NCBI GenBank assembly: GCA_015711795.1
Contig: JACVJC010000003.1
Location: 44,355-108,354, forward strand
Source: Candidatus Geothermocultor quzhuomuensis
GTDB taxonomy: Bacteria > Actinomycetota > Aquicultoria > Geothermocultorales > Geothermocultoraceae
Reading direction: 5' to 3'
DNA length: 64,000 nt
Shown here: piece by piece, positions 29,185-63,212 of the stretch
Numbering within the stretch: position 1 is the first letter of the stretch
Layout: every line of letters begins with the position of its first letter
Program-made: the position numbers and the translations under genes
The notes under the pieces: model-generated
What the model saw: the letters and a program-made list of their open reading frames with translations, nothing else
What the model was told of the DNA's origin: nothing
Databases searched by the model: none

Positions 29185-29694
29185 TTACTGATTAAAGAAA
29201 TCCTTAACTTCCTTATGGCACCTTTTACAATCTTTTTCTTTGGGCGCTTCTGTATCGGTGAACTTGGTTGCCCCATGAACAACTCGAGAATGACAATCAG
29301 TGCACTGAATTTCATTTTTAAGGTGAATGTGGTGCTCAACTTTCCTTTTCCCAACCCACTTTATTAAGGTAACTTCTTGGTGGCATTTTAAACAGTTTTC
29401 GTTTCCAACTCGACTTTTAATGGGTTTAGCAAATCCACCTGTGAAATGAAGAAAAACTCCCTTCACCCCTTTAAAGTAAGCAAGGGCTGAGCCAATTGCC
29501 CCTGGCTTAGTGTGGCAAAGTCGGCAGTCAAACCCGTGATGAGAAGAGTTTTCCCAAGAATTATAAGCTTCTTTCATCTCATGACAAAAACGACAAAAAG
29601 AAGGTTTAGAAGCATAATCCAAAGCAAAAATAAAAGCGACTAAAAATATAATGGAAAAGCCAATCCCTAGAATTCTTCGCTCATCAGGATTCAT
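29185..29694 (-). CDS. NapC/NirT/NrfH-family membrane-anchored multihaem cytochrome c (5 CxxCH)
   Basis: N-terminal TM helix followed by CRFCH, CRLCH, CLKCH, CTDCH, CKRCH. Architecture of quinol-oxidising NrfH/NapC. Confidence 0.7.
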   Translation of the reverse strand: MNPDERRILGIGFSIIFLVAFIFALDYASKPSFCRFCHEMKEAYNSWENSSHHGFDCRLCHTKPGAIGSALAYFKGVKGVFLHFTGGFAKPIKSRVGNENCLKCHQEVTLIKWVGKRKVEHHIHLKNEIQCTDCHSRVVHGATKFTDTEAPKEKDCKRCHKEVKDFFNQ

Positions 29695-30728
29695 TATTTG
29701 GCCTCCTTTTTCCTCAAAGCTTTAACCTTTTGGGCTTCCGATTTTAACTGAGCTAAGTGAGATTTAAGCCGAGCCGTTCCATACCAATGACCATAATCAG
29801 GGCTAATGTGGTAATAACCTTGAGTAATATTAGAAAAATCATATTTTAACATTTGGAAAAAGACTTGCTCAATGAAAGAAGTTTCTTCATAAGCTAAAGT
29901 CTTACCTGATAAAGGAGGAATGCCATGCTCTAACTTTGAGCCAGGAACTTCTTTTAAATACCCTTCTTTATATAAATCTTGAATGATTCTCCTTCCTTCT
30001 TCCAAAAGAGCAATTGACTCTCTTTTTATCTTGTCACATTTAAGAAGGTAATCTTGGGCAAACTTTCTAGTGTGGCATTCACTACAAGCCTTAATAATTT
30101 CGGAGCGCTTTTTAGTCACTTTGTGATTACCGTGACAATTTGAACAAGTAGGCTTGCCACTTTCTTGAGCAATCCGCCTATGAACTGAAGAGTCATATGC
30201 TTCTTTTTGAGGGTGGTCTTGACCCATATGGCAATTTTCACACCCACTCGTTACCGTTAAAGGTGGTTTAGGTTTCTTAAATTGATGGGCGGAGTGGCAA
30301 ACATCGCACCTTTCCTGAATTGAATGGCAAGCTTCGCAACCAAGCTTTTGAACCTCAAAACTTTGAAGCTTATACCTCAAATTAGCTCGAGCTAAATTAA
30401 GACCAAGAGAATGTCGGCTCCTCTGCCAATCAGCAAATTCCTTTTCGTGGCATCCAGCACATTTTTTTGGCAAGACCCGACCTTTCAACCTTTTCATTTC
30501 CCGATGGTTTATTCCGTGACAAGCAGTGCAACCAACTCCATTTTCTTTGTGTTTACTCTTCTCCCATAAGATAACTTGAAACTTAGAATATTTGCGGTGG
30601 CAAATGAGACACTTTTCATCTTTTTTGGTAGTTTCCCTCGTTTCTGAAGGAGAGCAGCCAAAAATGATAATTAAAAAAATAAATATCAAAAAAAGAACAA
30701 ATACTTTAATTCTTTTCAAAAAGTTCAC
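29694..30728 (-). CDS. periplasmic octahaem c-type cytochrome (8 CxxCH in 344 aa)
   Basis: Signal peptide. CLICH, CTACH, CAGCH, CEACH, CDVCH, CENCH, CSNCH, CSECH. Start codon overlaps the stop of the NrfH-like gene, which suggests translational coupling. Confidence 0.7.
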   Translation of the reverse strand: MNFLKRIKVFVLFLIFIFLIIIFGCSPSETRETTKKDEKCLICHRKYSKFQVILWEKSKHKENGVGCTACHGINHREMKRLKGRVLPKKCAGCHEKEFADWQRSRHSLGLNLARANLRYKLQSFEVQKLGCEACHSIQERCDVCHSAHQFKKPKPPLTVTSGCENCHMGQDHPQKEAYDSSVHRRIAQESGKPTCSNCHGNHKVTKKRSEIIKACSECHTRKFAQDYLLKCDKIKRESIALLEEGRRIIQDLYKEGYLKEVPGSKLEHGIPPLSGKTLAYEETSFIEQVFFQMLKYDFSNITQGYYHISPDYGHWYGTARLKSHLAQLKSEAQKVKALRKKEAK

Positions 30729-30810
30729 CTCTCAGGTTTACCTTTGAGGTATACCTTTTAGGTATTATTAACAAAATTTTTTTAAGGAGCAACCAAAAAT
30801 TAAAATAAAG

Positions 30811-32925
30811 TTAAAAAGGGCAAATAATAGCAGGACAACCACCTGCGTATTCAGAATCAGCACTAATGTGGTCTTCCTCTCCTGTCTCCTTAGCTAAAAG
30901 AGAGCCAATATAAAGAACCTGTTCTTTTCGGCTCCCATAACGATAGACAGTAATTCCCTTGCACTTTAAATCATAAGCTAATAAATAAACTCGGCGCACA
31001 TCTTCTGGAGAGGCATCGAAAGGTAAGTTAACCGTTTTTGAAACAGCATTATCAGTGTAACGCTGAAAGACAGCTTGCATCTTGACATGCCACTCAGGGC
31101 TAATGTCAAAAGCAGTAACAAAAATTCTCCTTATCTCCTTGGGAATCTTTTTTATCCCTCTTGCTGTTCCCTTCTTAGCTAATTCCATCATCAAGCCCTC
31201 ACTATAAAAACCACATCGAATAGCAACTTCCTCAAAGATGGGGTTGACCTCCAGTAACCTAGTTCCTTCCATTACATTTCGGATAAAGGAAAGAGCAAAC
31301 AAAGGTTCAATCCCACTACTTGCCCCAGCAATAATGCTAATTGTTCCAGTTGGAGCAATGGTGGTTAAGCTCGCGTTGCGCATTGCTCGATAACCTTTTT
31401 TCCTCCAAATACTCTTCTCAAAGTTAGGAAAAGAGCCTCGGCTTTCTCCTAACTCGATTGATTTCTTTCTTGCTTCCTCAGAAATGAATTTCATCACTTT
31501 TTGAGCAATCTTAAGTGCTTCCTTTGAATTGTAAGGAATGCCTAACTTAATAAGCATTTCAGCAAAGCCCATTACCCCTAAGCCAATTTTACGATTTCCT
31601 TTGGTCATTTCCTCCACTTCTTTCCGAGGAAATTGGTTAACATCAATGACATTGTCTAAAAAATGAACAGAACTTCTAACTATCATTCCTAATTTTTCCC
31701 AATTAATTTGATTATCTTTAACCATCTTAGCTAGGTTAATTGAGCCTAAATTACAACTTTCAAAAGGTAAAAGGGGTTGTTCGCCACAAGGATTAGTACT
31801 TTCAATTTGACCAAGAAAAGGGGTAGGATTATGACGATTAATTTCATCGATAAATATGAGTCCAGGGTCACCAGTTCGCCAAGCCATTGTAACAATTAAA
31901 TTAAAAACTTCTTTAGCTTTAAGTTTCTTTGTCTTTTTGCCTGTTCGCGGGTTAATAAGGTAATATTCTTGATCGTTCTTTAACTTATTAATAAACTCAT
32001 CGGTAACGGCAACTGAGAGATTAAAGTTGGTTAAAAATCCTTCTTTCTCTTTAGCAGCAATAAAATCTAAAATATCAGGATGGTCAATTCGCAAAATACC
32101 CATATTGGCTCCCCTTCTTCTTCCTCCTTGCCTTATCACACTGGTCGCAACATCGAAAACCTGCATAAAAGAAAGAGGGCCTGAGGCAATCCCCATAGTC
32201 GTTTTAACCACATCTCCCTTGGGACGAATTCGAGAAAATGAAAAGCCAACTCCCCCTCCTGACTTATGAATTAATGCCATATCCTTAACTGCATCGAAAA
32301 TTCCTTCAATCGAATCCTCAACTGGCAAAACATAGCAAGCTGATAGTTGCCCTATCTCTGTTCCAGCATTCATTAAAGTAGGTGAATTGGGTAAAAAATC
32401 AAGATTAACCATCATCTTGTAAAAGTCTTCTTCAGCTTGAGCAACACTTCTCCTTCCATAAATTTTTTCTGCTTGAGCAACTGCCCTGGCAACTCTCTCA
32501 AACATTTCTTTTGGTGTCTCAACCACCATCCCTTTCTCGTCTTTCAGCAAATATCTTCTTTTCAAAACCTTAATGGCGTTTACTGAAAGTTTTAAATCAT
32601 CTTTGACGCCAAAAAACTTCTTTGCTTCCCTCACCTCAAAGCGTTTTTGACGGTAAAGAATATAAGCCCGAGCAATATCAGCATATCCCTTCTTTATTAA
32701 AACCTCTTCGACTAAATCCTGAATATTTTCAACCGTCGGTATTTTCCCCTTATAATTCTTTTCTAATAAAGAAACAACTTCACTAGAAACCTGAGAAGCT
32801 AAATCTTTTTCCTGGTGACCAGTTGCTTGAGCAGCTCGGGCAATAGCAAAAGCTATCTTTCCTTGGTCAAAATTGGTGATAGTTCCGCTTCTTTTTCTTA
32901 CTTTTTTAATTTGAAAATTTCCCAT
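30811..32925 (-). CDS. nrdJ: adenosylcobalamin-dependent (class II) ribonucleoside-triphosphate/diphosphate reductase with N-terminal ATP-cone
   Basis: ATP-cone (KKVRKRSGTITNFDQGKI). Class II RNR core (LSACYVLPVEDSIEGIF..., SGGGVGFSFSRIRPKGD). C-terminal redox Cys pair (GGCPAIIC). Confidence 0.8.
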   Translation of the reverse strand: MGNFQIKKVRKRSGTITNFDQGKIAFAIARAAQATGHQEKDLASQVSSEVVSLLEKNYKGKIPTVENIQDLVEEVLIKKGYADIARAYILYRQKRFEVREAKKFFGVKDDLKLSVNAIKVLKRRYLLKDEKGMVVETPKEMFERVARAVAQAEKIYGRRSVAQAEEDFYKMMVNLDFLPNSPTLMNAGTEIGQLSACYVLPVEDSIEGIFDAVKDMALIHKSGGGVGFSFSRIRPKGDVVKTTMGIASGPLSFMQVFDVATSVIRQGGRRRGANMGILRIDHPDILDFIAAKEKEGFLTNFNLSVAVTDEFINKLKNDQEYYLINPRTGKKTKKLKAKEVFNLIVTMAWRTGDPGLIFIDEINRHNPTPFLGQIESTNPCGEQPLLPFESCNLGSINLAKMVKDNQINWEKLGMIVRSSVHFLDNVIDVNQFPRKEVEEMTKGNRKIGLGVMGFAEMLIKLGIPYNSKEALKIAQKVMKFISEEARKKSIELGESRGSFPNFEKSIWRKKGYRAMRNASLTTIAPTGTISIIAGASSGIEPLFALSFIRNVMEGTRLLEVNPIFEEVAIRCGFYSEGLMMELAKKGTARGIKKIPKEIRRIFVTAFDISPEWHVKMQAVFQRYTDNAVSKTVNLPFDASPEDVRRVYLLAYDLKCKGITVYRYGSRKEQVLYIGSLLAKETGEEDHISADSEYAGGCPAIICPF

Positions 32926-33121
32926 CTTTCCACTTTCACCTCATCATTAAGGAAATCCTGCTTCAAGTATTGCATGATTGAACATACTATATCAAATTTA
33001 TTTTTAAAATAACCCAATCTAATTAAAGCAAAAACAAAAAGCTGACAAGAATACCTGCCAGCAAAATTAAATAAAGAAAACTAGTTATAGAAAGTTAATT
33101 ACTTATGGTTGAAGGAGATAA

Positions 33122-33313
33122 TTAGGCTTCTTCGTTTAAAGCTTGAACTAATTCATCTGGGTCGATACCATGAGCTTGAGCTGCTTCCGCTAACGTCTCA
33201 CCACTCGCAATTAAACAGCCTAAACAGTGCATCCCATATTGAAGTAAAATCTCAGAGGCCTTTGGGTTAGCGTTAAGAACTTGAGAAATAGTAAAATCTT
33301 TTTCAATCTTCAT
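33122..33313 (-). CDS. DUF1858 (hybrid-cluster-protein-associated redox disulfide) domain protein
   Basis: MHCLGCLIASGETLAEAAQAHGID matches the DUF1858 signature, which is also the N-terminal domain of ScdA/RIC proteins. Confidence 0.6.
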   Translation of the reverse strand: MKIEKDFTISQVLNANPKASEILLQYGMHCLGCLIASGETLAEAAQAHGIDPDELVQALNEEA

Positions 33314-33367
33314 CTTGTTACTCCTTTATTTAAAATTATACCATAAATTGCTTACCTTTAACCAACT

Positions 33368-34066
33368 CTACTGGGCTCTCTTTTTCTTTTGGAGAAACCC
33401 TTCAGTATGGCAAATAATACAATCGTTCTTTAAAACCTTACCATTGTGACAACTAAAACAACTTTCTTCAGTAAGAAAATTCTCATAACCTTTAATCTCA
33501 TGAGCTACACGATTATGACACTTAGTACAATTCATTCCCAATTTTGAATGAGCCTCATGGTCAATTTTCAAACCTTGAGAAGGAGTAATGTTCTTTAAAG
33601 TATGACATTGGAGGCAAGATTCATCACTAATATCTTTAGCTAATTTACTCTCTTTGTTAATTGGCTTTTCGTAATTACCTGTTATCTTAAGAATAAGACT
33701 TTTAGGAGCAACCGTCATTTTGTCCTTAAGGAGAGCAATTAGCCCAGGTTCAACATGACAACTGATACAGTTAACATTGCGATGATTTGACTCTTTCCAG
33801 GCTCTAATATCAGCCTCCATTTCATGGCAGAAAGAACAAAATTGAGGTCGGCAAGTATAAGCAATTCCACCAACAAAACCTAAAACAAGAAAAAAAGCTA
33901 AAGCACTTAAAAGGAAAACGTTTCGGGAAATTACCAAAACAAAAGCTCTTCGAGAAAAACCAACCCCTTTGCGTGCTTCAGTCGTCGTGCATTTTCTAGG
34001 ATCTCTCCCTAAAATGCACTCTCCACTTCGAGTTTGATAATCACAATCTGCGCATTTACTTACCAC
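33368..34066 (-). CDS. NapC/NirT-family membrane multihaem cytochrome c (6 CxxCH) with cytoplasmic Cys-rich N-terminal extension
   Basis: N-terminal CADCDY...C..C zinc-ribbon-like segment, a TM helix, then CSFCH, CISCH, CLQCH, CTKCH, CFSCH, CIICH. Paralogous to 29185..29694 (both have C.FCHEM after the TM). Confidence 0.65.
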   Translation of the reverse strand: MVSKCADCDYQTRSGECILGRDPRKCTTTEARKGVGFSRRAFVLVISRNVFLLSALAFFLVLGFVGGIAYTCRPQFCSFCHEMEADIRAWKESNHRNVNCISCHVEPGLIALLKDKMTVAPKSLILKITGNYEKPINKESKLAKDISDESCLQCHTLKNITPSQGLKIDHEAHSKLGMNCTKCHNRVAHEIKGYENFLTEESCFSCHNGKVLKNDCIICHTEGFLQKKKRAQ

Positions 34067-34271
34067 TTTGCCCCTCTGAATTTTTTAAAATCCTATCACA
34101 AATATTTTTATTTTCCAACCACTTTCTTGATATTTTTTCCTTTCTCTTTAAAATTTAAAAGAAAAGGACACTACCTAGGTTCAAACACATAGTAGACACC
34201 TTGGTAGAATAGATGAGAAATAAAGGAGGTGTCCGTGAAAGGAAGGGTAGGAGTAGCTACAAGGTTATAAC

Positions 34272-34916
34272 TTGCTTTTGCCTCATCAAAGAAAGCTTAA
34301 AAGCCTTAATTTCCTCCCAAAAGAAGCTAAGAAAAGACTTAAATGGATTGACTACTACTTGAAACACAAAAATGGGAGGAAAACTTGCCATTATTTTGGA
34401 ATAAGTCAAACCACCTTCTACAAATGGCTTAATCGCTACGAAAAGATGGGACCCAAGGGCCTAGAGAACCGCTCAAAAAGACCAAAGACCTTCCGCTGGG
34501 ATCTCTTCTCTATCTTGACACTAAACATTTAACCTTTCCTGGAAAGACCTTTTATCAGTTTACAGCCATTGATTCAAAAACCAGAATCAAGTTCATCAAA
34601 GTCTATTCGGGAGCCTCTTCCAAGGCCGGAAAACTCTTTCTCCATAAGTTAATAAAGTTTATGCCTTTTCCTATCTCAAACATTCAAACCAATAATGGAG
34701 CTGAATTCTTAAAGTATTTCCATCAGGAACTTGAAAGGCGAAACATAGCTTACTACTTCTCTTTCCCTAACTGTCCTAAACAGAACTCACGAGTGGAATT
34801 ATACCTACAACTACGTGATACCCCATCAGTCTCTTGATTATTTAACTCCCATGAATTACTTGGAATCTCTAAAAAAGGAGGATAAAATTAACTCCCAAGT
34901 GTCTACGATGATATGA
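34272..34916 (+). pseudogene. IS481-family transposase remnant (frameshifted, internally shortened)
   Basis: Frame 1 gives the HTH region ...GISQTTFYKWLNRYEKMGPKGLENRSKRPKTF. After a frameshift it reads ...LDTKHLTFPGKTFYQFTAIDSKTRIKFIKVY...IQTNNGAEF...CPKQNSRVE (degenerate PQTNGKVE). A further shift gives HQSLDYLTPMNYLESL. Total coding potential is about 215 aa against about 350 aa for intact IS481. Confidence 0.6.
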
Positions 34917-35015
34917 ACCAGTGCACCAAATTGCACCTAAAAATTAATGATGTTATAATTTTTAAAAGAGTATTTATTGCTCAAAATTTAGCAAACTCTC
35001 CAAAATCTAGGGGTT

Positions 35016-37154
35016 ATGAATAAAGAATACGATCAAAGTAGTTCCATTGAAAATATTCTTAAACAAATGGCTTCTGCGCTTAAAACTCTAAGGATTTATC
35101 CAGCTCAAAATCCTATCCCAGCTCAAGCAATTAAAAAATTCTACCAAGCCTTAGAGCAATTCTTGGAAGGAGAAGGGGGCTTAAGAATCAAAGTAACCAA
35201 GGAATGCTTCATTTGTCACAACCTAACCATTGAGCCAACTGGTAATGAATTAATTAGTTCACTCCTCCAAGAGTTGTATACCCGAGGATTAAGTCAAATA
35301 ACTTTTTTCTCTAGTCTCACCGAAGAAGAACTTACCAATTTTTTATCTCTTCTCAATTTAGAACCACAAACTATTAGAGCAAAAGGTGGATTGAGCTCTC
35401 TTCTCTGGGAAAAAGAAATTGTCAATATAATTGTTCAAGAAGTATCCCCTAAAATTTTTCCACCAGCTCAATTAAGTGAAGTTGAAGCATTAGAGAAAGA
35501 GTTTCCTCATCAAAATCTTCTTGAATTAATGCTGGAAAAAATTTCACTCTCGCCGGAAGAAACAAAAATTATCCTAAATTTTCTCTCGCAAGCTGATAAT
35601 TTAACTGAAATCATAAAAGAGGCTCTCGAAAAGGGAGACCTTGAGACAATTTACCAATCAATTATTAAGATTGCCCAAGTTTTTAGACAAGAGTTACCTG
35701 ACATTGCCTCTCACTACTTCCGCAATCTTATTGAGGCTATTCTCTCTTTGGATGAAAAAACACGCAACGAACTTTTCTCTAAGAAACTCCTTCCCCACCT
35801 AGAAGAAGATGAACTTGCCCCGCTCTTCAGCCAACTTTCGGTTCCTGAGTTAGTTAATATTCTTTCAACCGCCATTAAAGATAAAGAAATTCCCATTCAA
35901 AAAATCCCTAAATTAATCGAAAAACTTAATTTAAGCGAAGAAGCTAATAAAGAAACTCTTATCCTTTTAGGGAAAAGAGTAGCTGGAATTGTTCCCTTGC
36001 TAAGAACTTTCGAGAATTCAATTAAAGAAAGAGAAGAAAAGCAAAGTCTCGAGGGTTTAACTTTAGAAGAAAAGCCTCTAGAGGACATTGAAACCACCCT
36101 CGCTATTGAAACGACCCTTGAGTTTACTGAAGAGGAAAAAGAGAAACTTCAAGAATTGATTAAAAGTGGGAATGAGCTTGAAACAGCTTTACCCGTAATC
36201 AATACTTTAATCGACATGCTTTCACTGGAAGATAAATTTGAAAATTTTTCTCAAATTTTAACTTCTTTAGAAAATCTTATGCCTTCATTAATTAGTGCTG
36301 GCGAATTTAATTTATCTGTTAAAATAGTCAACGCCTTCCGTGACCAATATTTAAGTAAAAGTAATTTTCCCCCAAAGTTTCGGGAAAGATTAAATCAATC
36401 AGTTAGAAAAGCAGCTTCACCAGATAAAATTAACCAGATTCTTAGCTCCCTCCAGTATTTAGAAAAAGAAAGTGAAGAGTTTAAAAGAGCTTATTCTTAC
36501 CTCCTCTTACTTGATCGGAGCTGGGTTGTTACCTCTTTGCTTGAACTCTTAGCTCAAGAAAAACAAATTTCAATGCGAAAATTAATTCTTAATTTGCTTG
36601 TCGACTTGGGGCAACATGAAATTCCAATTCTTGGAAATAAAGTTAATGACCCAAGATGGTACTTAGTTCGAAATGTTGTGACAGTTCTTGGATTAATTAG
36701 CCGAGAGGAAGCTCTCCCTTATCTTGCTAAAGTAATAAGCCATCCTGATTCTCGTGTTCGCCATGAAGTCATTAAAGCTCTTGGAGCAATTGGAGGAAAA
36801 AAAGCCTATGAGTTAATGGCTTCTGTTCTCGAGGGAAAAGATGCCGAGGACTCAAGCATTGTCATTAAGATTGCCGCCAAAACAAAAAATCCACAAATGG
36901 TTCCCCATCTAGCCAAAATAATTGAAGAAAGAGATTTCTTTGGGAAAAAAATTGATTTAAAGAAAATGGCAGTTGATGCTTTGAGTCAAGTTGCAACACC
37001 AGAAGTAATCCCAGTTCTTGAAAAATGTCTTCAGAAAAAGTCATTTCTCTTTCGGGCTAGAAATAAGGAAATTAAAAAAAGAGCAATAGAAGCTTTGAAG
37101 CAAATTGGAACACCTCAAGCTCTTGAAGTACTCCAAAAAGCTAAATTAGCTTAA
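35016..37154 (+). CDS. HEAT/PBS-lyase repeat protein (alpha-helical, C-terminal HEAT array)
   Basis: C-terminal repeats of the form ...VRNVVTVLGLISREEALPYLAKVISHPDSRVRHEVIKALGAIGGKKAYELM... 712 aa, predicted helical throughout. Confidence 0.6.
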   Translation: MNKEYDQSSSIENILKQMASALKTLRIYPAQNPIPAQAIKKFYQALEQFLEGEGGLRIKVTKECFICHNLTIEPTGNELISSLLQELYTRGLSQITFFSSLTEEELTNFLSLLNLEPQTIRAKGGLSSLLWEKEIVNIIVQEVSPKIFPPAQLSEVEALEKEFPHQNLLELMLEKISLSPEETKIILNFLSQADNLTEIIKEALEKGDLETIYQSIIKIAQVFRQELPDIASHYFRNLIEAILSLDEKTRNELFSKKLLPHLEEDELAPLFSQLSVPELVNILSTAIKDKEIPIQKIPKLIEKLNLSEEANKETLILLGKRVAGIVPLLRTFENSIKEREEKQSLEGLTLEEKPLEDIETTLAIETTLEFTEEEKEKLQELIKSGNELETALPVINTLIDMLSLEDKFENFSQILTSLENLMPSLISAGEFNLSVKIVNAFRDQYLSKSNFPPKFRERLNQSVRKAASPDKINQILSSLQYLEKESEEFKRAYSYLLLLDRSWVVTSLLELLAQEKQISMRKLILNLLVDLGQHEIPILGNKVNDPRWYLVRNVVTVLGLISREEALPYLAKVISHPDSRVRHEVIKALGAIGGKKAYELMASVLEGKDAEDSSIVIKIAAKTKNPQMVPHLAKIIEERDFFGKKIDLKKMAVDALSQVATPEVIPVLEKCLQKKSFLFRARNKEIKKRAIEALKQIGTPQALEVLQKAKLA

Positions 37155-37168
37155 CTAGGTGACTAAAG

Positions 37169-38632
37169 ATGGAAGATTCTGAAAACCCTTTAAAAAAAGA
37201 GATTAAGTTGCGAGAAGGGGATATCTCGCTTGCTCACTATAAAGCAGCAGTAGAAAAAGCCAGAAAGATTTTGCACTCTCTCGTCTCTGCCTTAAAAAAT
37301 GAAAGTTACTACCCACCCCATCACCCTTTTGTAGCTCAATCTCTATCTGCTCTTCATGAGATCCTTAAAAGCTACTTGCTTGAAGGCAAACCAATTATCC
37401 TTAATTTTTTTCAAGACGAACTTTACTATGAAGATGTTCCTTTACCTGAAGAAAGTCTTTCTCATGCTCAACTAATTAAGAACTTCTCAGAAAGAGATAT
37501 TGGGAGCATAACCTTCCAAACTGGAGTTACTTCTTCTGAACTAAGAATATTCATTCACCTCCTTAACAAAAATCCAGAAGAACTTTCGGAAAAAGGAGGA
37601 TTAATTCAAGCTCTTGCCCATGAAAATGTGGAACATATAATAGTAGGAAAACCTCAACCAACCCCTAGCCAAAAAATTGATACCAATGAAGGTTCAGTCG
37701 AAGAAAACTTAAGAAAGATAGCTAAAGAAACCTACCACTACGCACTAGGAACTATTCAGGAAATTACAGAAAATATTAAATCTGGTCAACCAATCAACGT
37801 TAAAAAGGCTAAATCAACTGTTCAGCTCATGGTAGATCATATTCTCCAAGACCCTTATGCCATGCTTGGCTTAGCCAACTTAAAAAACTATGACTATTAT
37901 ACTTTTTACCACTCAGTCAATGTGCTCATTCTCTCATTGACCCTAGGTGCTACCCTCCCCCTCAAGAGAGTTCCTCTAAGCATTCTCGGCATCTCTGCTC
38001 TCCTCCATGACGTGGGTAAAATTAAAATACCCTCTGAAATTATTAAAAAGCCAGGCCCTCTAACCTCAGAAGAGTGGAAAATCGTTGAAAGACACCCCCT
38101 TGATGGAGCTGAAATTTTAAGTGAAGTTAGAGGCTTAAACAAACTTTCAATTATTGTCGCTTTTGAACACCATATGAGCTTTAACCAAAGAGGATACCCT
38201 AGGTTACCTTCTCCCCGAACTCCCCATATCTTTAGCCAAATTGTAGGAATTGCTGATGCCTATGATGCAATGACTTCGCAGCGCTCCTATCGCCCTCCTG
38301 AACTGCCTGATAATGCTCTTAAAATAATCCTTCAATTGAGTAATGAAAGTTTTGACCCCATTTTAACGAAGTCTTTCGTCAAGTTAATGGGCATTTATCC
38401 TGTTGGTTCTCTTGTCAAATTAAACACAGGAGAGATAGGTGTTGTTTATCGCTCTAACCCTAACGATTTACTTCACCCAATTGTTAAAATAATTCTAGAT
38501 AAAAATGGTTATCTTATCGACCCTTATAAATTTGACTTATCCCAAAAAAAAGATGGAGAATTTGAAAAAACTATCACCAGAAGCTTAGATCCTGAAGCAT
38601 TTAAAATAAATGTAAATCAATATCTTTTATGA
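37169..38632 (+). CDS. HD-GYP domain c-di-GMP phosphodiesterase with N-terminal sensory region
   Basis: HD motif LLHDVGK. EHHMSFNQRGYPR is the HHExxDGxGYP-type HD-GYP motif. Translationally adjacent to the HEAT protein. Confidence 0.75.
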   Translation: MEDSENPLKKEIKLREGDISLAHYKAAVEKARKILHSLVSALKNESYYPPHHPFVAQSLSALHEILKSYLLEGKPIILNFFQDELYYEDVPLPEESLSHAQLIKNFSERDIGSITFQTGVTSSELRIFIHLLNKNPEELSEKGGLIQALAHENVEHIIVGKPQPTPSQKIDTNEGSVEENLRKIAKETYHYALGTIQEITENIKSGQPINVKKAKSTVQLMVDHILQDPYAMLGLANLKNYDYYTFYHSVNVLILSLTLGATLPLKRVPLSILGISALLHDVGKIKIPSEIIKKPGPLTSEEWKIVERHPLDGAEILSEVRGLNKLSIIVAFEHHMSFNQRGYPRLPSPRTPHIFSQIVGIADAYDAMTSQRSYRPPELPDNALKIILQLSNESFDPILTKSFVKLMGIYPVGSLVKLNTGEIGVVYRSNPNDLLHPIVKIILDKNGYLIDPYKFDLSQKKDGEFEKTITRSLDPEAFKINVNQYLL

Positions 38633-38947
38633 AAAACTAAAACTTCTTTACTGATTCGAATCCTGTCCCCATTGACAAGAATTTTTTTTCTTGGGTATTT
38701 TACATGTTAAGATATGTCCCCTTGGTACTATCAAGATTAATGAGGCAATAGTTGTTATCTCTTAGTTCAATTTTCGCCTTTTCCGTAAAACCTTTTCATC
38801 CCGTAAGAAAATGCTGCTTTTTTCATCTTGAGCCTTCCTAATTTTTAGTAAATTTTACTCCTTTTAAAATGAGGAGACTTGACAAAAAGAGTAATTAAGT
38901 TTTAAAATATGACTAATTTAATTAAAAAAGTCATAAAAGGAGAATGG

Positions 38948-39391
38948 ATGAGACTAACTAAAAGAGCTGAATATGCTTTAAGGGCAATGCTGGAGCTTGC
39001 CTTTCAACCTGAGGAGAAATATATTTTATCGAAGGAAATCTCTGAAAAGCAGAGCATTCCTCTAAAATTTCTCGCCCATATTTTTTTAGATTTAAGCCGA
39101 GGAGGTTTAATTCAAACAAATCGGGGTATTGGTGGTGGAATCAAAATAACTAAGCCTCCTTCCCAAATAAACTTAAAGGAAATTATTGAATTAATTGAGG
39201 GCCCAATTGCTCTTAATGATTGCTTAACGACCCCTTCTCAATGCCAAAGAGATAAGTTTTGCTCTCTTTATGATGTTTGGGCTGAAGCTCAGAAAAAGTT
39301 CCTTGAAGTGCTTGAACAAACAACGTTAGAGGATTTAGTTACTAAAGGTTCTAAAAAAAGCCAAAGCTTGAGCGGGAAAAGAAAGCTATAA
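38948..39391 (+). CDS. iscR: Rrf2-family transcriptional regulator, IscR-like
   Basis: MRLTKRAEYALRAMLELA winged-helix N-terminus. Three-Cys cluster ligand motif C-x6-C-x5-C (CLTTPSQCQRDKFC). Start placed at the internal Met. Confidence 0.75.
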   Translation: MRLTKRAEYALRAMLELAFQPEEKYILSKEISEKQSIPLKFLAHIFLDLSRGGLIQTNRGIGGGIKITKPPSQINLKEIIELIEGPIALNDCLTTPSQCQRDKFCSLYDVWAEAQKKFLEVLEQTTLEDLVTKGSKKSQSLSGKRKL

Positions 39392-39412
39392 TAGCTAAAG
39401 GAGAGATAAAAA

Positions 39413-40597
39413 ATGAGAAAAGTTTATCTAGATAATGCTGCCACAACCCCAATTCACCCCGAAGTATTAAAAGTAATGCTTCCTTACCTTAAAGAGATAT
39501 ATGGTAACCCTTTGAGTCTTCACGATTTTGGTGAAGAAGCTAAGAAGGGAATTGAAAAGGCAAGAAGCCAAGTAGCTAATTTAATTGGAGCTAGCCCGGA
39601 AGAAATCATTTTTACTTCTAGTGGCACTGAATCAAACAATTTGGCTTTAAAAGGTATTGCTCAAGCTAATTCTAAAAAAGGCAATCATATAATTGTCTCC
39701 CAAATTGAACACTTCTCAGTTCTTTACCCTGCCAAGGCTTTGGAAAAAGCAGGATTCGAGGTTACTTACATTCCAGTAGATCAATATGGTCTTGTTGACC
39801 CCACCGATATTGAAAAAAAGATAAAAAAAGAAACGATTTTAATTTCAGTTATGTTTGCTAATGGAGAAATTGGTACAATTGAACCAATTAAAGAAATTGG
39901 CAAAATAGCTCGTGAGAAAGGTGTTTGCTTTCATACCGATGCGGTTCAAGCTGCTGGTATTATTCCAATAGATGTTAATGAGACCCAAGTTGACCTGCTT
40001 AGCTTATCAAGTCACCAATTTTATGGGCCAAAGGGTGTTGGTGCTCTCTTTGTAAGAAAAGGGATAAGAATCTTACCTTTTATTGAAGGAGGAATCCAGG
40101 AAGATGGAAAAAGACCAGGTACTGAAAATGTGGCAGGAATAGTTGGTTTAGGAAGAGCAGCTGAACTTGCAAGACAAGAACTTCCAGAGAGAATTACCTA
40201 CTTAGCTCCTCTTCGAGATAAACTCATTGAAGGGCTTTTGGGAAAAATTGACCGCATTATCTTAACTGGCCATCCAACTAAACGACTCCCTGGACATGTA
40301 AGCATCTGCATTGAGTTTATTGAAGGAGAATCGATGCTGATGTTTTTAAATATGGAAGGAATTGCTGCTTCTAGTGGCTCTGCTTGCACTTCTCGTGCTT
40401 TAAAGGCTTCTCATGTTCTTTTAGCCACTGGCATCTCGCACGAAACTGCTCATGGTTCTTTAGTCTTTTCAATAGGAATGAAAAACACCAAGGAAGACAT
40501 TGACTATGTTTTAGAGGTTCTTCCGCCGATTGTAGAGCGCTTAAGAAAGATGTCTCCTCTTTATGCTAAATACTTAAAAGTGAAGGGAGGAATTTAA
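39413..40597 (+). CDS. iscS: cysteine desulfurase (NifS/IscS class)
   Basis: MRKVYLDNAATTP..., PLP-binding region and the SGSACTS active-site loop. Confidence 0.9.
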   Translation: MRKVYLDNAATTPIHPEVLKVMLPYLKEIYGNPLSLHDFGEEAKKGIEKARSQVANLIGASPEEIIFTSSGTESNNLALKGIAQANSKKGNHIIVSQIEHFSVLYPAKALEKAGFEVTYIPVDQYGLVDPTDIEKKIKKETILISVMFANGEIGTIEPIKEIGKIAREKGVCFHTDAVQAAGIIPIDVNETQVDLLSLSSHQFYGPKGVGALFVRKGIRILPFIEGGIQEDGKRPGTENVAGIVGLGRAAELARQELPERITYLAPLRDKLIEGLLGKIDRIILTGHPTKRLPGHVSICIEFIEGESMLMFLNMEGIAASSGSACTSRALKASHVLLATGISHETAHGSLVFSIGMKNTKEDIDYVLEVLPPIVERLRKMSPLYAKYLKVKGGI

Positions 40598-40598
40598 A

Positions 40599-41168
40599 AT
40601 GCCTCTTTATAGTGAAAAAGTGATGGAACATTTTAAAAATCCAAGAAATGTTGGTGAAATTGAAAACGCAGATGGAATAGGTGAAGTTGGCAACCCTGTT
40701 TGTGGGGATATGATGACCTTTTATATCAAAGTCAAAGATAACCATTTAGAGGATGTTAAGTTCCAAACCTTTGGATGTGGAGCAGCCATTGCTGTTTCAA
40801 GCATGGTCAGTGAGATGGCTAAAGGTAAAACCATTGAAGAAGCTCTCAAAATCACCAACAAAATGGTAGCTGAAAAACTTGAGGGTTTACCCTCTAACAA
40901 GATGCATTGTTCCAATCTAGGAGCCTCGGCTCTCCACAAAGCAATTGAGAATTATCTGGAAAAGAAAAAGGTCAAGCTGAAAGTAAAAGAAATGCCCAAG
41001 CCCAGCGAAGAAAAAGTGTGTTGCTGCCCGTATTGCAAATCCTCTATCACCATGCCCTATCCTTATTGTCAATCCTGTGGTAAAGAATATGTGTTCTGCC
41101 CCACATGTAAAAAACCATATCCTAAAGGAACGAGAACCTGTTCTCAATGTGGGAAAAAGCTTGAATAA
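40599..41168 (+). CDS. iscU: Fe-S cluster assembly scaffold IscU/NifU with C-terminal multi-Cys zinc-ribbon extension
   Basis: YSEKVMEHFKNPRNVG...GNPVCGDMM...FGCGAAIA...MHCSNL is the IscU core. An extra 50-aa tail follows: CCCPYCKSS...CQSCGK...CPTCKK...CSQCGKKLE. Confidence 0.8.
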   Translation: MPLYSEKVMEHFKNPRNVGEIENADGIGEVGNPVCGDMMTFYIKVKDNHLEDVKFQTFGCGAAIAVSSMVSEMAKGKTIEEALKITNKMVAEKLEGLPSNKMHCSNLGASALHKAIENYLEKKKVKLKVKEMPKPSEEKVCCCPYCKSSITMPYPYCQSCGKEYVFCPTCKKPYPKGTRTCSQCGKKLE

Positions 41169-43364: not shown

Positions 43365-44435
43365 CTAGCTCCTTTGAGATTTTAAGATAGCTTTTATTTT
43401 CTTGAGATTGCTTTGAGCAGCCTGGGAAAGAGTACCATTAGGCTCAAGCTCAAGATATTTTCTAAATTCTTTTTCCGCTCCTTTTAAATCATTTCGCCCT
43501 CGCCACAAGACAACACCAAGGTTATAGTGAGCATATGCATGTTTTGGGTCAATTTTGATAACCTTATTGAGTTCAGCTAAAGCAAGGTCAATTATGCCTA
43601 AATTAAAGTAAGCAATAGCTAAGTCAGTTCTGACATCGGTATTAGCTGGGTCTAGCTTAATAGCTTTGCGATATATCTCGATTGCATTTTGATACTTATG
43701 GGAGTCAAAATAAAAATTACCTAAAGCAATTAATGTTTGGAGGTCGTTAGGATTTTCTCGAAGAATTCTCAAGTATTCTTGTTCTTGAACTTTATAGGCT
43801 TCAAATTCAGCCCTAATCTCTGGTGGCAATTCCACCTTGGATTTGTTTCCACCCAAAACGCCGAATTGGATAATTAAAACAAGAGCGATAAATAAAACAA
43901 GGCCAGTGGCAATTGGAAGCAAACTTCTCTTTTTTGTTTTCAATAACCGACTGATTGACTCTCTTCGGCTTTCTCTTTCTCTAAACTGTTGCACTTTAAT
44001 TCCAAAAAGTTGAGCCTTCAGAAGCATGTTTAAATCGTTAGTAACAATAGTAACTTCAGCCTGAGGATTATCAGTAGCAATTTGATAAACTGTAGCCAGA
44101 ATTTGGTCATCTGAACTTTTGATATTTAGTGAGGAAGGATAAGGCTTGTTTGGGTCAAAAGAAACCACCCTCAAAGTAGAGCTGTTTTCTAAGCTAATAC
44201 CTTCTACCAGTTTGCCCTTCTCTGAAATATCAAAGAGAAGGCGAGAAACTTTTCTCCCTCGAAAGCGCAAGTCTTTATCTAAGGAAGTCATTTTAAGCTT
44301 ATCTAATTCAACAAAAACAGTTTGAGGAATAATCACTTCACTTTGAGGAAAAGCAAAAATTATTTGAGAATCATATAAAAGAGCATTAGTATCAAGAATT
44401 ATTATTTTCTTTTTTTTATTAAATTCTTTTTTCAT
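43365..44435 (-). CDS. PIN-domain / TM / TPR-repeat protein
   Basis: N-terminal IIILDTNALLYD...VFVELDKLK is a PIN domain. A central hydrophobic helix follows, then C-terminal TPR repeats (ALGNFYFDSHKYQNAIEIYRKAIKLDPAN...). Confidence 0.55.
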   Translation of the reverse strand: MKKEFNKKKKIIILDTNALLYDSQIIFAFPQSEVIIPQTVFVELDKLKMTSLDKDLRFRGRKVSRLLFDISEKGKLVEGISLENSSTLRVVSFDPNKPYPSSLNIKSSDDQILATVYQIATDNPQAEVTIVTNDLNMLLKAQLFGIKVQQFRERESRRESISRLLKTKKRSLLPIATGLVLFIALVLIIQFGVLGGNKSKVELPPEIRAEFEAYKVQEQEYLRILRENPNDLQTLIALGNFYFDSHKYQNAIEIYRKAIKLDPANTDVRTDLAIAYFNLGIIDLALAELNKVIKIDPKHAYAHYNLGVVLWRGRNDLKGAEKEFRKYLELEPNGTLSQAAQSNLKKIKAILKSQRS

Positions 44436-44933: not shown

Positions 44934-45296
44934 TTATTCATATGAGGGGGTAGCACTTCCAGTAACGGAAACTTTCAGGTACGGTTGGAAGTAACCAATT
45001 CGGTGAACGATAAAGGTATCTCGAACAGGGATAATAACTTCTACTGTAATTTTCTCAGGTGAGAAATTAAATTTGTTTAAAGTAACCCCCATTTCTTTAG
45101 CTTTGCTTTGACTAGTATACTCGGCAGCACTTGGAGAATGAGTTGAGAGGTAATTTTTCATACCTTCTTGAGCAATCTCATCAGCTAAACTTGTTTGAAA
45201 GCGTGGCATTGCAACTCTTATGGCGTCATTAATAATGACAATACTGATAGCGATGATAATAAAAAATTTAATAACTATACTAAATGAGTTTCTCAT
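44934..45296 (-). CDS. small membrane-anchored protein
   Basis: N-terminal TM helix. Translationally coupled to the upstream large gene by a 4-nt overlap. Confidence 0.35.
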   Translation of the reverse strand: MRNSFSIVIKFFIIIAISIVIINDAIRVAMPRFQTSLADEIAQEGMKNYLSTHSPSAAEYTSQSKAKEMGVTLNKFNFSPEKITVEVIIPVRDTFIVHRIGYFQPYLKVSVTGSATPSYE

Positions 45297-61196: not shown

Positions 61197-63212
61197 TTGA
61201 GTTATAATCAGGAAAAGCTCCAGAATCAATTTGTTATTCTCCGGTGGATTGTTCTTTTTGCTTTAACCTTTTATTTTCTTCAATCTTTTCCAGAAGCAAG
61301 ATTTTATACACTTCTTTTATTTTCTTTAGGTTTACTTTACCTCCTTGCATACCATCTTCTCCGTCCTTATTCCCGATTTAGTTCAAGAAAAATTGATGGG
61401 CTAATTTTATTAATCGATACCTTTTTTGTTGTTATGATAAGTCCTTTCTTTGGCGGTTTGGCAGGAAACGCTTACCTTCTTTACCTCGCAGTTATTTTAG
61501 AATCAGTTTATGAGTTTAGTCTTCTCGGTGCTTTTTTTGTGATAGGAGGAATACTTCTTTTAAATGCTTCTATCTATACCCTCACTCATAGTCCTTTCTG
61601 GTCTCCTTCAAGCTTTCTTAAAGAGCCGTTGCGAATATTAGCTACTATCCTGATAGTCCTTGCGGGAAGCATATTTTGTCAAGTTCAAAAAGAAGAAATC
61701 CTTAAACAAAAAGAAACCTTAAAAAACCTCCAAGAAAGGATAAAACAACTCTCTGTTTTGGGGAAAATAGTTGGGACAGAAAGGTTTTTATTTGACTTTT
61801 ATGCTCTTTTAAATTTTATTCTTTCACCAGTGAAAGAGGCTCTTCGAGCTGAAACTTTGATTATTAGCCTAAGGGAAGGTGATACTTTAGTTCACCAAGT
61901 AGTTATCGGAAAGGGAAAGGAAACTTTGGAAAGAAAAAGAATGAAAATAAACCACAACTTGCCAAGCTTGACTATTAAGAAAGAAAAAACTCTCCGAGTA
62001 GAACCGAAAAACCTGACCCAGTTTTCAAGAGAGTTAAAATGCTTCAGCTTTTTGAATCCTAATACAGTTATTTCAGCTCCGATAAAAAGTGAAGAGGGAA
62101 TTATTGGGGTAGTTACTGCCATCAATAAGGAAGAGAGAAAAATTTTTTCACCTGACGACGCAGAATTTTTAGGAATTGCAACTCACCACTTTCGAGCAAT
62201 GATTAAAGAATCCATCTTGCGTCAAGAACTCCACCAAAAAATTAACGAACTTACAGCCATGTCCCAAATCGCTCAAGTGACCACTTCTACACTTAAACTG
62301 GTTGACTTACTTAATCAAGTGCTTCAAGTTCTCATCAAGTTATTTGATGCCTCTTCAGGTTCAATCATGCTAGTCGAGAAGGGCCTTTTGAAAATTAGAG
62401 CAGCTCATGGCCTTCATCCATCAATAGTTAAAAGGGCCCGAAGAAAGCTTGGAGAAGGCATTAGTGGTTATGTAGCTCAAGAGAGAAAAAGCCTCCTCTT
62501 AACCAATCCCCTTGAAGAATCAAAGCTTAAAGGAGTTAAAGAGTCAATTCGTGATTCAGTAATTGCTCCTTTAGAAGCAAGAGAAAATGTTGTAGGTGTT
62601 GTATGTTTAAACAATGAAAACGGAAAAAACCGTTTTACCTCAGAGCACCTTAGACTTTTAGAAGCTCTCTCGAACCAAATCGCTATTGCGGTAGAAAATG
62701 CTCGAATTTACGAATTAACTCAACGAAAATCCGTTACCGATCAGCTTACTGAACTATATAACCACGCTTACTTCTGGGAAAGACTGAATGAAGAGATTGA
62801 GAGAGCAAAAAGGCACTCTCATCATCTTTCTTTAATTATGATAGACATTGATGATTTTAAAAAATATAATGATTTATTTGGTCATCTCAAAGGGGATGAT
62901 TCTTTAAGAACTCTAAGCCAAATATTAAAAACTCAAATTCGCAAATCTGATATTGCTGCTCGATATGGTGGAGAAGAGTTCGCCATTATCCTCCCTGAAA
63001 CTAGCATGAAAAAAGCTTTTGTTTTAGCTGAAAGGGTCAGAAAAGCGGTGGAGGAAAACAAAGATAAATTTCTTTCACCATTAACTATTAGTTTAGGAGT
63101 AGCTACCTTTCCCACCTCAGCACAAGATGCTAAATCTCTTCTTCAACAATCCGATTTTGCCCTTTATGATGCCAAGAAGTCCGGGAAAAATAAGGTTTGT
63201 TCCAAAAAGTAA
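61197..63212 (+). CDS. membrane-anchored GAF-domain diguanylate cyclase (GGDEF)
   Basis: About 5 N-terminal TM helices, two GAF-like regions, RYGGEEFAIILP GGDEF active site. Confidence 0.8.
   Translation: MSYNQEKLQNQFVILRWIVLFALTFYFLQSFPEARFYTLLLFSLGLLYLLAYHLLRPYSRFSSRKIDGLILLIDTFFVVMISPFFGGLAGNAYLLYLAVILESVYEFSLLGAFFVIGGILLLNASIYTLTHSPFWSPSSFLKEPLRILATILIVLAGSIFCQVQKEEILKQKETLKNLQERIKQLSVLGKIVGTERFLFDFYALLNFILSPVKEALRAETLIISLREGDTLVHQVVIGKGKETLERKRMKINHNLPSLTIKKEKTLRVEPKNLTQFSRELKCFSFLNPNTVISAPIKSEEGIIGVVTAINKEERKIFSPDDAEFLGIATHHFRAMIKESILRQELHQKINELTAMSQIAQVTTSTLKLVDLLNQVLQVLIKLFDASSGSIMLVEKGLLKIRAAHGLHPSIVKRARRKLGEGISGYVAQERKSLLLTNPLEESKLKGVKESIRDSVIAPLEARENVVGVVCLNNENGKNRFTSEHLRLLEALSNQIAIAVENARIYELTQRKSVTDQLTELYNHAYFWERLNEEIERAKRHSHHLSLIMIDIDDFKKYNDLFGHLKGDDSLRTLSQILKTQIRKSDIAARYGGEEFAIILPETSMKKAFVLAERVRKAVEENKDKFLSPLTISLGVATFPTSAQDAKSLLQQSDFALYDAKKSGKNKVCSKK

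Follow-up and report, generated by a model that had tools for sequence, protein, structure and literature searches.

A widespread HD-GYP subfamily encoded beside a HEAT-repeat partner with which it shares a new N-terminal domain

Does the close apposition of a gene for a HEAT-repeat protein and a gene for an HD-GYP protein reflect a functional unit, or is it a chance neighbourhood? The question is raised by a locus of Candidatus Geothermocultor quzhuomuensis (contig JACVJC010000003.1) within a stretch of 64,000 nucleotides (nt), which was analysed as a whole and is called the window here. Two open reading frames (ORFs), ORF1 and ORF2, are co-oriented and 14 bp apart; their coordinates, strand and gap are exactly those given by an earlier reading of the sequence alone (the sequence-only reading). 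Of the two classes of phosphodiesterases acting on cyclic di-GMP (c-di-GMP), HD-GYP proteins are understood less well, and the timing and place of messenger removal depend largely on their input domains and partners. Our analysis shows that the gene pair is an ancient unit whose members are nearly always adjacent, in the fixed order HEAT then phosphodiesterase. Two things are new: a widespread subfamily of HD-GYP proteins that is set apart by its obligate HEAT partner, and a domain common to both proteins, hereafter the N-domain. A full-text literature search found no paper on such a pair, which agrees with the earlier claim that the pairing of a HEAT protein with a second-messenger phosphodiesterase is undescribed.

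Rare adjacency of orthologues had been named beforehand as what would refute the pairing; adjacency was instead found from both sides. Starting from ORF1, a family-specific peptide pattern yielded 419 species-representative genomes with an ORF1 relative, of which the best 80, chosen solely by the presence of that relative, were analysed; they belong mostly to Coriobacteriia, other Actinomycetota and Nitrospirota, together with Elusimicrobiota, Deltaproteobacteria/Syntrophaceae and a few others. An ORF2-type HD-GYP gene follows immediately downstream in all 78 evaluable loci (full-length in 73, cut by a contig end in five), the contig being over too early in the remaining two. Each of 86 complete loci holds exactly two ORFs with an N-domain, the HEAT-type upstream and the phosphodiesterase-type downstream. 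Seen from ORF2, whose best 120 homologues are all full-length, relatives with 35–54% identity from six lineages have a same-strand HEAT_2 gene of 615–755 amino acids (aa) immediately upstream in 6/6 cases; the junction is a short gap or overlap, the flanking genes are unrelated, and the upstream proteins are full-length ORF1 homologues. A metagenome scan seeded on HD-GYP motifs carried a built-in control in those HD-GYP genes that lack the N-domain. Among N-domain HD-GYP genes with enough upstream sequence, the HEAT partner lies upstream in 18 of 19 and downstream in one, as compared with 0/51 for HD-GYP genes without an ORF2-type N-domain. Stop-to-stop ORFs over-extend in high-GC DNA; re-inspection of ten metagenome N-domain loci found the partner in nine, including the one with the partner downstream (L094).

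In the window and in relatives alike, the gene for a HEAT protein with an N-domain has directly beside it, in the same orientation, an HD-GYP gene whose product carries the paralogous copy. The flanking genes vary between phyla, and flanking-gene clustering, which was polluted by shadow ORFs, revealed no third gene conserved beside the pair across phyla. Of 82 junctions, 77 show an overlap between the upstream stop and the nearest in-frame start (−4 nt in 33, −1 nt in 13), which suggests translational coupling. The two remote ORF1-like proteins P0125 (Omnitrophica) and P0002 are each encoded ahead of an overlapping HD-GYP gene. Inverted gene order was seen only at L094 (3953–7739), where a phosphodiesterase of 474 aa is followed immediately by a HEAT partner of ~773 aa. 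One metagenome locus (L109, 1729–8945) carries a tandem HEAT-phosphodiesterase-HEAT-phosphodiesterase array, and another (L100, 2–6431) a HEAT-phosphodiesterase pair followed by the beginning of another HEAT gene; the pair thus duplicates as a unit. Two separate pair loci (L030 and L056) are present in the Coriobacteriia metagenome-assembled genome JAFGAG01. In an exhaustive phmmer search ORF1 matched 314 clusters at 50% identity (E ≤ 1e-30), among them a few giant HEAT-repeat proteins that rank high but are unrelated and lack the N-domain. Despite these hundreds of clusters a word-indexed protein search gave only three to five matches for the ORF1 family, so that few matches in such a search are not evidence of an orphan.

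The domain common to both proteins is of ~140 aa and alpha/beta type, and a paralogous copy opens each of them. The sequence-only reading had held that the first ~450 aa of ORF1 match nothing, a claim that is contradicted by the homology of ORF1 residues 14–145 to ORF2 residues 34–164 (32% identity, BLASTP E 5e-12). The N-domain profiles of the two families align over 143 columns (hhalign 99.6%, E 2.8e-24), and a hidden Markov model (HMM) built from ORF1-family N-termini alone matches ORF2 at 9e-31; the same model found the domain in no other ORF of the window. In the AlphaFold models of both proteins the order of elements is identical, with two long helices, a beta-hairpin, a helix, a strand, three short helices and a strand. 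The model of ORF2 residues 1–240 has a predicted local distance difference test score (pLDDT) of 86, with residues 21–160 above 92. Common to both families is a Tyr-Pro at the turn following helix 1 (Y28/Y48, 99–100%), and further shared positions are F97/F116, G100/G119, E105/E124, F109/F128, a Gly-Gly loop and I138/I157. Within the ORF1 family Tyr28-Pro29 is near-invariant and Glu105 and Gly124-Gly125 are conserved; in the ORF2 family Y48 is invariant and P49, H52, E124 and G143-G144 are conserved, the conservation of H52 being found mainly in the phosphodiesterase family. The copies from ORF1 and ORF2 each group with their own family, which points to an ancient duplication. We found neither a Pfam model nor a solved structural counterpart for the N-domain, and it is absent from the HD-GYP-associated domains catalogued in the searched passages of the census by Galperin and Chou (10.1101/2021.11.05.467447). 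Identity with DUF3391 (PF11871), the N-terminal domain of the Bd1817 family, was rejected because that domain was not found in ORF2.

The C-terminal part of ORF1 shows both the Pfam signature (HEAT_2, 6.7e-25, and HEAT_PBS, 1.8e-13, both above the gathering score, at residues ~530–710) and the alpha-solenoid fold of phycobilisome (PBS) lyase-type HEAT proteins. The sequence-only reading had confined a HEAT array to the C-terminal third; the type stands, but in the AlphaFold model the solenoid extends over residues 372–712, about half of the protein, and residues 150–345 form helical repeats as well. The full-length AF2 model of ORF1 has a pLDDT of 90, and the isoelectric point (pI) of the protein is 5.5. 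Full-length members of the family are about 690–750 aa long. There is also a shorter subfamily of 510–610 aa (proteins P0188–P0275), in which 45 of the members listed have kept the N-domain and the C-terminal ~340 aa, and much of the middle helical region is gone.

ORF2 was correctly recognized beforehand as a member of the HD-GYP family, as seen from Pfam matches at residues 245–397 (HD_5, 4.1e-21; HD, 4.8e-15) and from its alignment to PmGH of Persephonella marina (PDB 4MCW; phmmer E 4.2e-22, family profile 8.3e-42). Its N-terminal ~250 aa, by contrast, had been described as a region of unknown function; the first part of it is the N-domain, which is followed by a flexible linker and long helices. 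H189, H221-D222, H250, H276-H277 and D305 of PmGH align with H248, H280-D281, H309, H334-H335 and D363 of ORF2, and the metal-ligand His and Asp residues are invariant in ORF2-family alignments. The motif strings read HDVGK and HHMSFNQRGYP; GYP is present, and so are the substrate motifs KKPG and RSYR, the latter fitting RxY[K/R]. According to the census, KPG and RxY[K/R] are HD-GYP substrate motifs, RxY[K/R] being linked to c-di-GMP specificity, and Gln or Asn at its last position is reported to shift specificity to cyclic GMP-AMP (cGAMP) (10.1101/2021.11.05.467447). Glu185 of PmGH, four residues before the first His, corresponds to Tyr244 in ORF2, and this position is Tyr in 106 of 117 family members and Asp in eight; ORF2 thus lacks the mark of a trinuclear, PmGH-like enzyme. 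Tyr at this site is typical of binuclear HD-GYP enzymes that stop at 5'-phosphoguanylyl-guanosine (pGpG) (10.1101/2021.11.05.467447). Judged by these residues, ORF2 is an HD-GYP protein of the ordinary, non-trinuclear type, and Tyr244 together with RSYR predicts a binuclear, c-di-GMP-specific enzyme that yields mainly pGpG. Of the two substrates considered at the outset, c-di-GMP is therefore the predicted one, and cGAMP is less likely for ORF2 because RSYR fits the c-di-GMP motif.

Based on the conserved pairing, the paralogous N-domains, the catalytic residues and a cyclase fusion described below, we propose that ORF1 and ORF2 may together make up one cytoplasmic module for c-di-GMP hydrolysis, each being a subunit of the phosphodiesterase, a model to which we assign a probability of roughly 0.55; the pair probably forms one uncharacterised signalling unit. 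The two proteins would be produced in roughly equal amounts and would assemble via their N-domains as a pseudo-homodimer. The HEAT solenoid may act as the regulatory or targeting subunit, either gating the HD-GYP site or tethering ORF2 to a partner, and such gating or tethering would render c-di-GMP hydrolysis local or signal-dependent. The sequence-only reading had already suggested that the pair could couple a platform for protein interactions to c-di-GMP turnover. ORF2 itself is expected to hold a binuclear Fe/Mn centre and to convert c-di-GMP mainly to pGpG. Across 80 pairs the distance matrices of all four regions are correlated with r = 0.93–0.97; the two largest partial correlations link the HEAT C-terminus to HD-GYP (0.55) and the two N-domains to each other (0.40), values that give a hint only.

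Further tentatively, the shared N-domain might be a new module for hetero-dimerisation, or for ligand-gated dimerisation, that assembles a HEAT-scaffolded phosphodiesterase holoenzyme similar in layout to protein phosphatase 2A (PP2A), and the same N-domain-HEAT module might also be wired to a diguanylate cyclase. The latter idea stems from P0126, a metagenomic protein of 1244 aa (L173, 6001–9735) in which GGDEF and AAA_16 domains, the latter resembling signal transduction ATPases with numerous domains (STAND), are fused to a complete ORF1 module. Its N-domain spans residues 602–734 with HEAT repeats C-terminal to it, and residues 604–1242 match the whole ORF1-family profile (99.3%, E 4e-20). 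There is no HD-GYP gene at that locus, the upstream neighbour encodes an MshEN-T2SSE ATPase, and the protein cluster was found on two contigs only. Because of this cyclase fusion and the phosphodiesterase pairing, the module is tied to c-di-GMP enzymes of both directions.

Several observations weigh against the two-subunit model. The partial correlations mentioned above do not amount to an independent statistical test, conserved operons can encode proteins that work in series without binding each other, and the genes of the window are separated by 14 nt and do not overlap. Literature searches found no experimental work on any member of either family. Moreover, ORF2 has HHM and its family HH[M/L/A/Q] in place of HHE, and GxGYP is without its first Gly, so that activity of ORF2 cannot simply be assumed; relatives also vary at the fourth position of RxY[K/R] (S 43, R 20, Q 14, H 7, K 5), and the substrate may therefore differ among members. 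From these deviations, including the many members with Ser, Gln or His in place of Lys/Arg, one could argue that the HD-GYP protein is not a c-di-GMP hydrolase at all and is inert, acting through protein contacts, or prefers 3'3'-cGAMP or pGpG. We regard this as improbable given that the metal-binding His and Asp residues, KPG, the Tyr of GYP and, in ORF2, RSYR are intact. Known inactive HD-GYP proteins have lost HD or HH residues, and HdgA, a variant with RxxS, is reported to still hydrolyse c-di-GMP (personal communication cited in 10.1101/2021.11.05.467447). Kinship of ORF2 with this Streptomyces protein was rejected, as HdgA is an HD-GYP protein with six transmembrane segments and of unrelated architecture.

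If the enzyme is accepted as active, its relation to the HEAT protein might still differ from that of two subunits. The two N-domains could each bind one and the same small ligand or partner, and the proteins would then respond independently to one signal, the HEAT protein being an adaptor with an output of its own that does not bind the enzyme. The Tyr-Pro at the hairpin tip, the Glu and the Gly-Gly loop conserved in both paralogues would fit a ligand site equally well as an interface, and in P0126 the module serves a GGDEF cyclase with no HD-GYP gene nearby. However, strict 1:1 adjacency, fixed order and overlapping starts and stops are more typical of stoichiometric complexes, and none of the evaluable loci has an N-domain HD-GYP gene without the partner; we consider such parallel sensing rather unlikely. 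Alternatively, the HEAT protein might be a c-di-GMP receptor or effector, possibly through R547-W548, with the HD-GYP protein as its dedicated local off switch. This idea draws on the DxRWxxVRN signature and other invariant Arg residues of the solenoid and on the links of the module to c-di-GMP on both sides, but it is pure inference and seems distinctly improbable to us, since none of the known motifs and domains for c-di-GMP binding (PilZ, MshEN, I-site) turned up and the conserved VR and Asp belong to the ordinary PBS-HEAT consensus. Next to no chance is left for incidental adjacency, or for a HEAT enzyme of the bilin-lyase/NblB type unrelated to the phosphodiesterase: adjacency as consistent as that seen from either gene leaves no room for chance, and the similarity of ORF1 to NblB and CpcE in NCBIfam is weak (36 and 23 bits). 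Assignment of ORF1 to these enzymes was rejected on the scores (NblB 36.1 bits versus a cut-off of 300, CpcE 22.6 versus 330, CpcF 14.1 versus 220). A defence system was likewise dismissed because PADLOC gives ORF1 only generic HEAT-ARM matches at 17 bits and ORF2 none.

Table 1. Features of the ORF1-ORF2 locus; coordinates are positions in the window
Feature	Coordinates	Strand	Description
Candidate extended −10 element TGTTATAAT	34951..34959	+	57 nt before ORF1 start; read by eye; sequence-level suggestion only
ORF1	35016..37154	+	712 aa, ATG start; HEAT-partner protein, cytoplasmic; N-domain followed by helical repeats, an acidic disordered linker and a PBS-type HEAT solenoid
ORF1 N-domain	35028..35453	+	aa ~5-146; alpha1-alpha2-beta-beta-alpha-beta-alpha-alpha-alpha-beta; pLDDT 93-98
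ORF1 middle helical-repeat region	35463..36050	+	aa ~150-345; variable across family, shortened in 510-610 aa subfamily
ORF1 acidic disordered linker	36048..36128	+	aa ~345-371; pI 4.05; pLDDT 39-51
ORF1 C-terminal HEAT/PBS-type alpha-solenoid	36129..37151	+	aa 372-712; family signature D545-x-R547-W548-x-x-V551-R552-N553
ORF1-ORF2 spacer	37155..37168	+	14 nt; Shine-Dalgarno AGGTGA 6 nt before ORF2 ATG
ORF2	37169..38632	+	487 aa, ATG start; cytoplasmic HD-GYP phosphodiesterase (predicted)
ORF2 N-domain	37241..37663	+	aa ~25-165; paralogue of ORF1 N-domain
ORF2 flexible linker and long helices	37664..37888	+	linker aa ~161-175; helices aa 176-239 into catalytic domain (AlphaFold)
ORF2 HD-GYP catalytic domain	37889..38389	+	aa ~241-407; H248, H280-D281, K294-P-G, H309, H334-H335, G342-Y343-P344, D363, R371-S-Y-R374
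ORF2 C-terminal extension	38390..38629	+	aa 408-487; conserved GxYPxGSLVxLxTGE; no Pfam hit

Both ORFs of the window are genuine genes, as their length is not a matter of chance in DNA of 36% GC and both have full-length homologues. Their GC contents (0.355 for ORF1 and 0.373 for ORF2) are in line with that of the window (0.368), and no transmembrane segments were found in either protein. The sequence from the ORF1 stop through the ORF2 start reads TAA-CT-AGGTGA-CTAAAG-ATG and offers a good Shine-Dalgarno site for ORF2. The candidate element TGTTATAAT was not listed by a promoter consensus scan because it has no −35 match; it sits just beyond the end of a decayed IS481-like transposase with internal stops (34270–34915, +). 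One frame of this remnant holds an ORF with HTH_28 (34272..34532), another an rve-type core with 'TNNGAEF', and the C-terminal end is again in the first. The remnant stops ~100 nt before ORF1, and the native upstream region of the pair is therefore probably disrupted.

The sequence-only reading had also pointed to a GAF-GGDEF cyclase gene in the window. The gene is real (61197..63212, +; GGDEF 2.1e-48, GAF 4e-21), but it lies 22 kilobases from the pair and is unlinked to it, and a functional connection was rejected because of this distance. The encoded protein has an N-terminal region of 367 aa without a Pfam match at E ≤ 1e-5. No c-di-GMP riboswitch was found in the window, the search returning only three tRNAs. 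Directly downstream of the pair (38909–41168, +) is an Rrf2(IscR)-IscS-IscU cluster whose IscU is of the NifU_N type and is extended at its C-terminus by a double zinc-ribbon (DZR). Fe2+ is typically required by HD-GYP enzymes, yet this neighbourhood is not conserved in relatives. Upstream of the pair and on the opposite strand (29694–34066) are genes for a multi-haem cytochrome c (344 aa), the large subunit of ribonucleotide reductase with an ATP cone (704 aa) and a NapC/NirT-type tetrahaem cytochrome (232 aa); the cytochromes, the ribonucleotide reductase and the GC content of 36–37% suggest an anaerobic respiratory lifestyle. Elsewhere in the window are a PIN_4 domain fused to tetratricopeptide (TPR) repeats (43365–44435, −; 356 aa) and a protein of 648 aa (45293–47239, −) with a marginal match only to glycoside hydrolase family 57 (GH57; E 9e-06).

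The HD-GYP subfamily with a dedicated HEAT-repeat partner occurs in at least 419 species-level genomes. If ORF1 and ORF2 do bind each other, ORF1 would clearly exemplify an accessory subunit that is obligate for a phosphodiesterase of cyclic dinucleotides, and the pair would offer a way into the c-di-GMP signalling of poorly studied phyla (Coriobacteriia, other Actinomycetota, Nitrospirota, Elusimicrobiota, Omnitrophota, Syntrophaceae). Should the N-domain indeed be a dimerisation module, then a widespread device that has so far gone unrecognised would serve input or targeting in local c-di-GMP signalling among Actinomycetota, Nitrospirota and other anaerobic lineages, most of them uncultured. 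The pair would be of real interest to the c-di-GMP field, but for it to alter the general view of HD-GYP enzymes both the complex and its regulation would have to be shown.

Among solved structures the GAF-HD-GYP protein PmGH (PDB 4MCW/4MDZ) is the best match to the catalytic domain of ORF2, with the HD, HH and Asp ligands, KPG, GYP and RxY[K/R] all aligned. It differs from ORF2 in having a GAF domain at its N-terminus and Glu185 for a third metal, where ORF2 has the new N-domain and Tyr; the census passages searched make no mention of a partner gene for PmGH (10.1101/2021.11.05.467447). In overall design ORF2 resembles the Bd1817/PA4108/VC2497 family (DUF3391-HD-GYP, COG2206), whose members are cytoplasmic, are not response regulators and have an N-terminal domain of ~120–140 aa, without known function, which a long helix connects to HD-GYP. 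Their DUF3391 domain, which is distinct from the N-domain of ORF2, may promote dimerisation according to the authors of the census (10.1101/2021.11.05.467447). RpfG-type proteins set a precedent for HD-GYP proteins acting within protein complexes (10.1101/2021.11.05.467447), but they are response regulators of the REC-HD-GYP type, have no gene for a HEAT partner beside their own and lack the shared N-domain. A HEAT partner for an HD-GYP protein is not mentioned in the census passages searched (10.1101/2021.11.05.467447).

On the side of ORF1, the PBS-lyase-type HEAT proteins (CpcE/CpcF, NblB, YibA, deoxyhypusine hydroxylase and the synthetic alphaRep) invite comparison. The NCBIfam scores of ORF1 reach about a tenth of the equivalog cut-offs, and ORF1 differs from these proteins in its additional N-domain and middle region and in its pairing with a phosphodiesterase. 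PP2A, whose catalytic fold is unrelated, whose substrates are others and with which there is no evolutionary link, provides an analogy only: its core enzyme unites a HEAT-repeat A subunit with a metallophosphoesterase C subunit, a layout that a complex of ORF1 and ORF2 might resemble.

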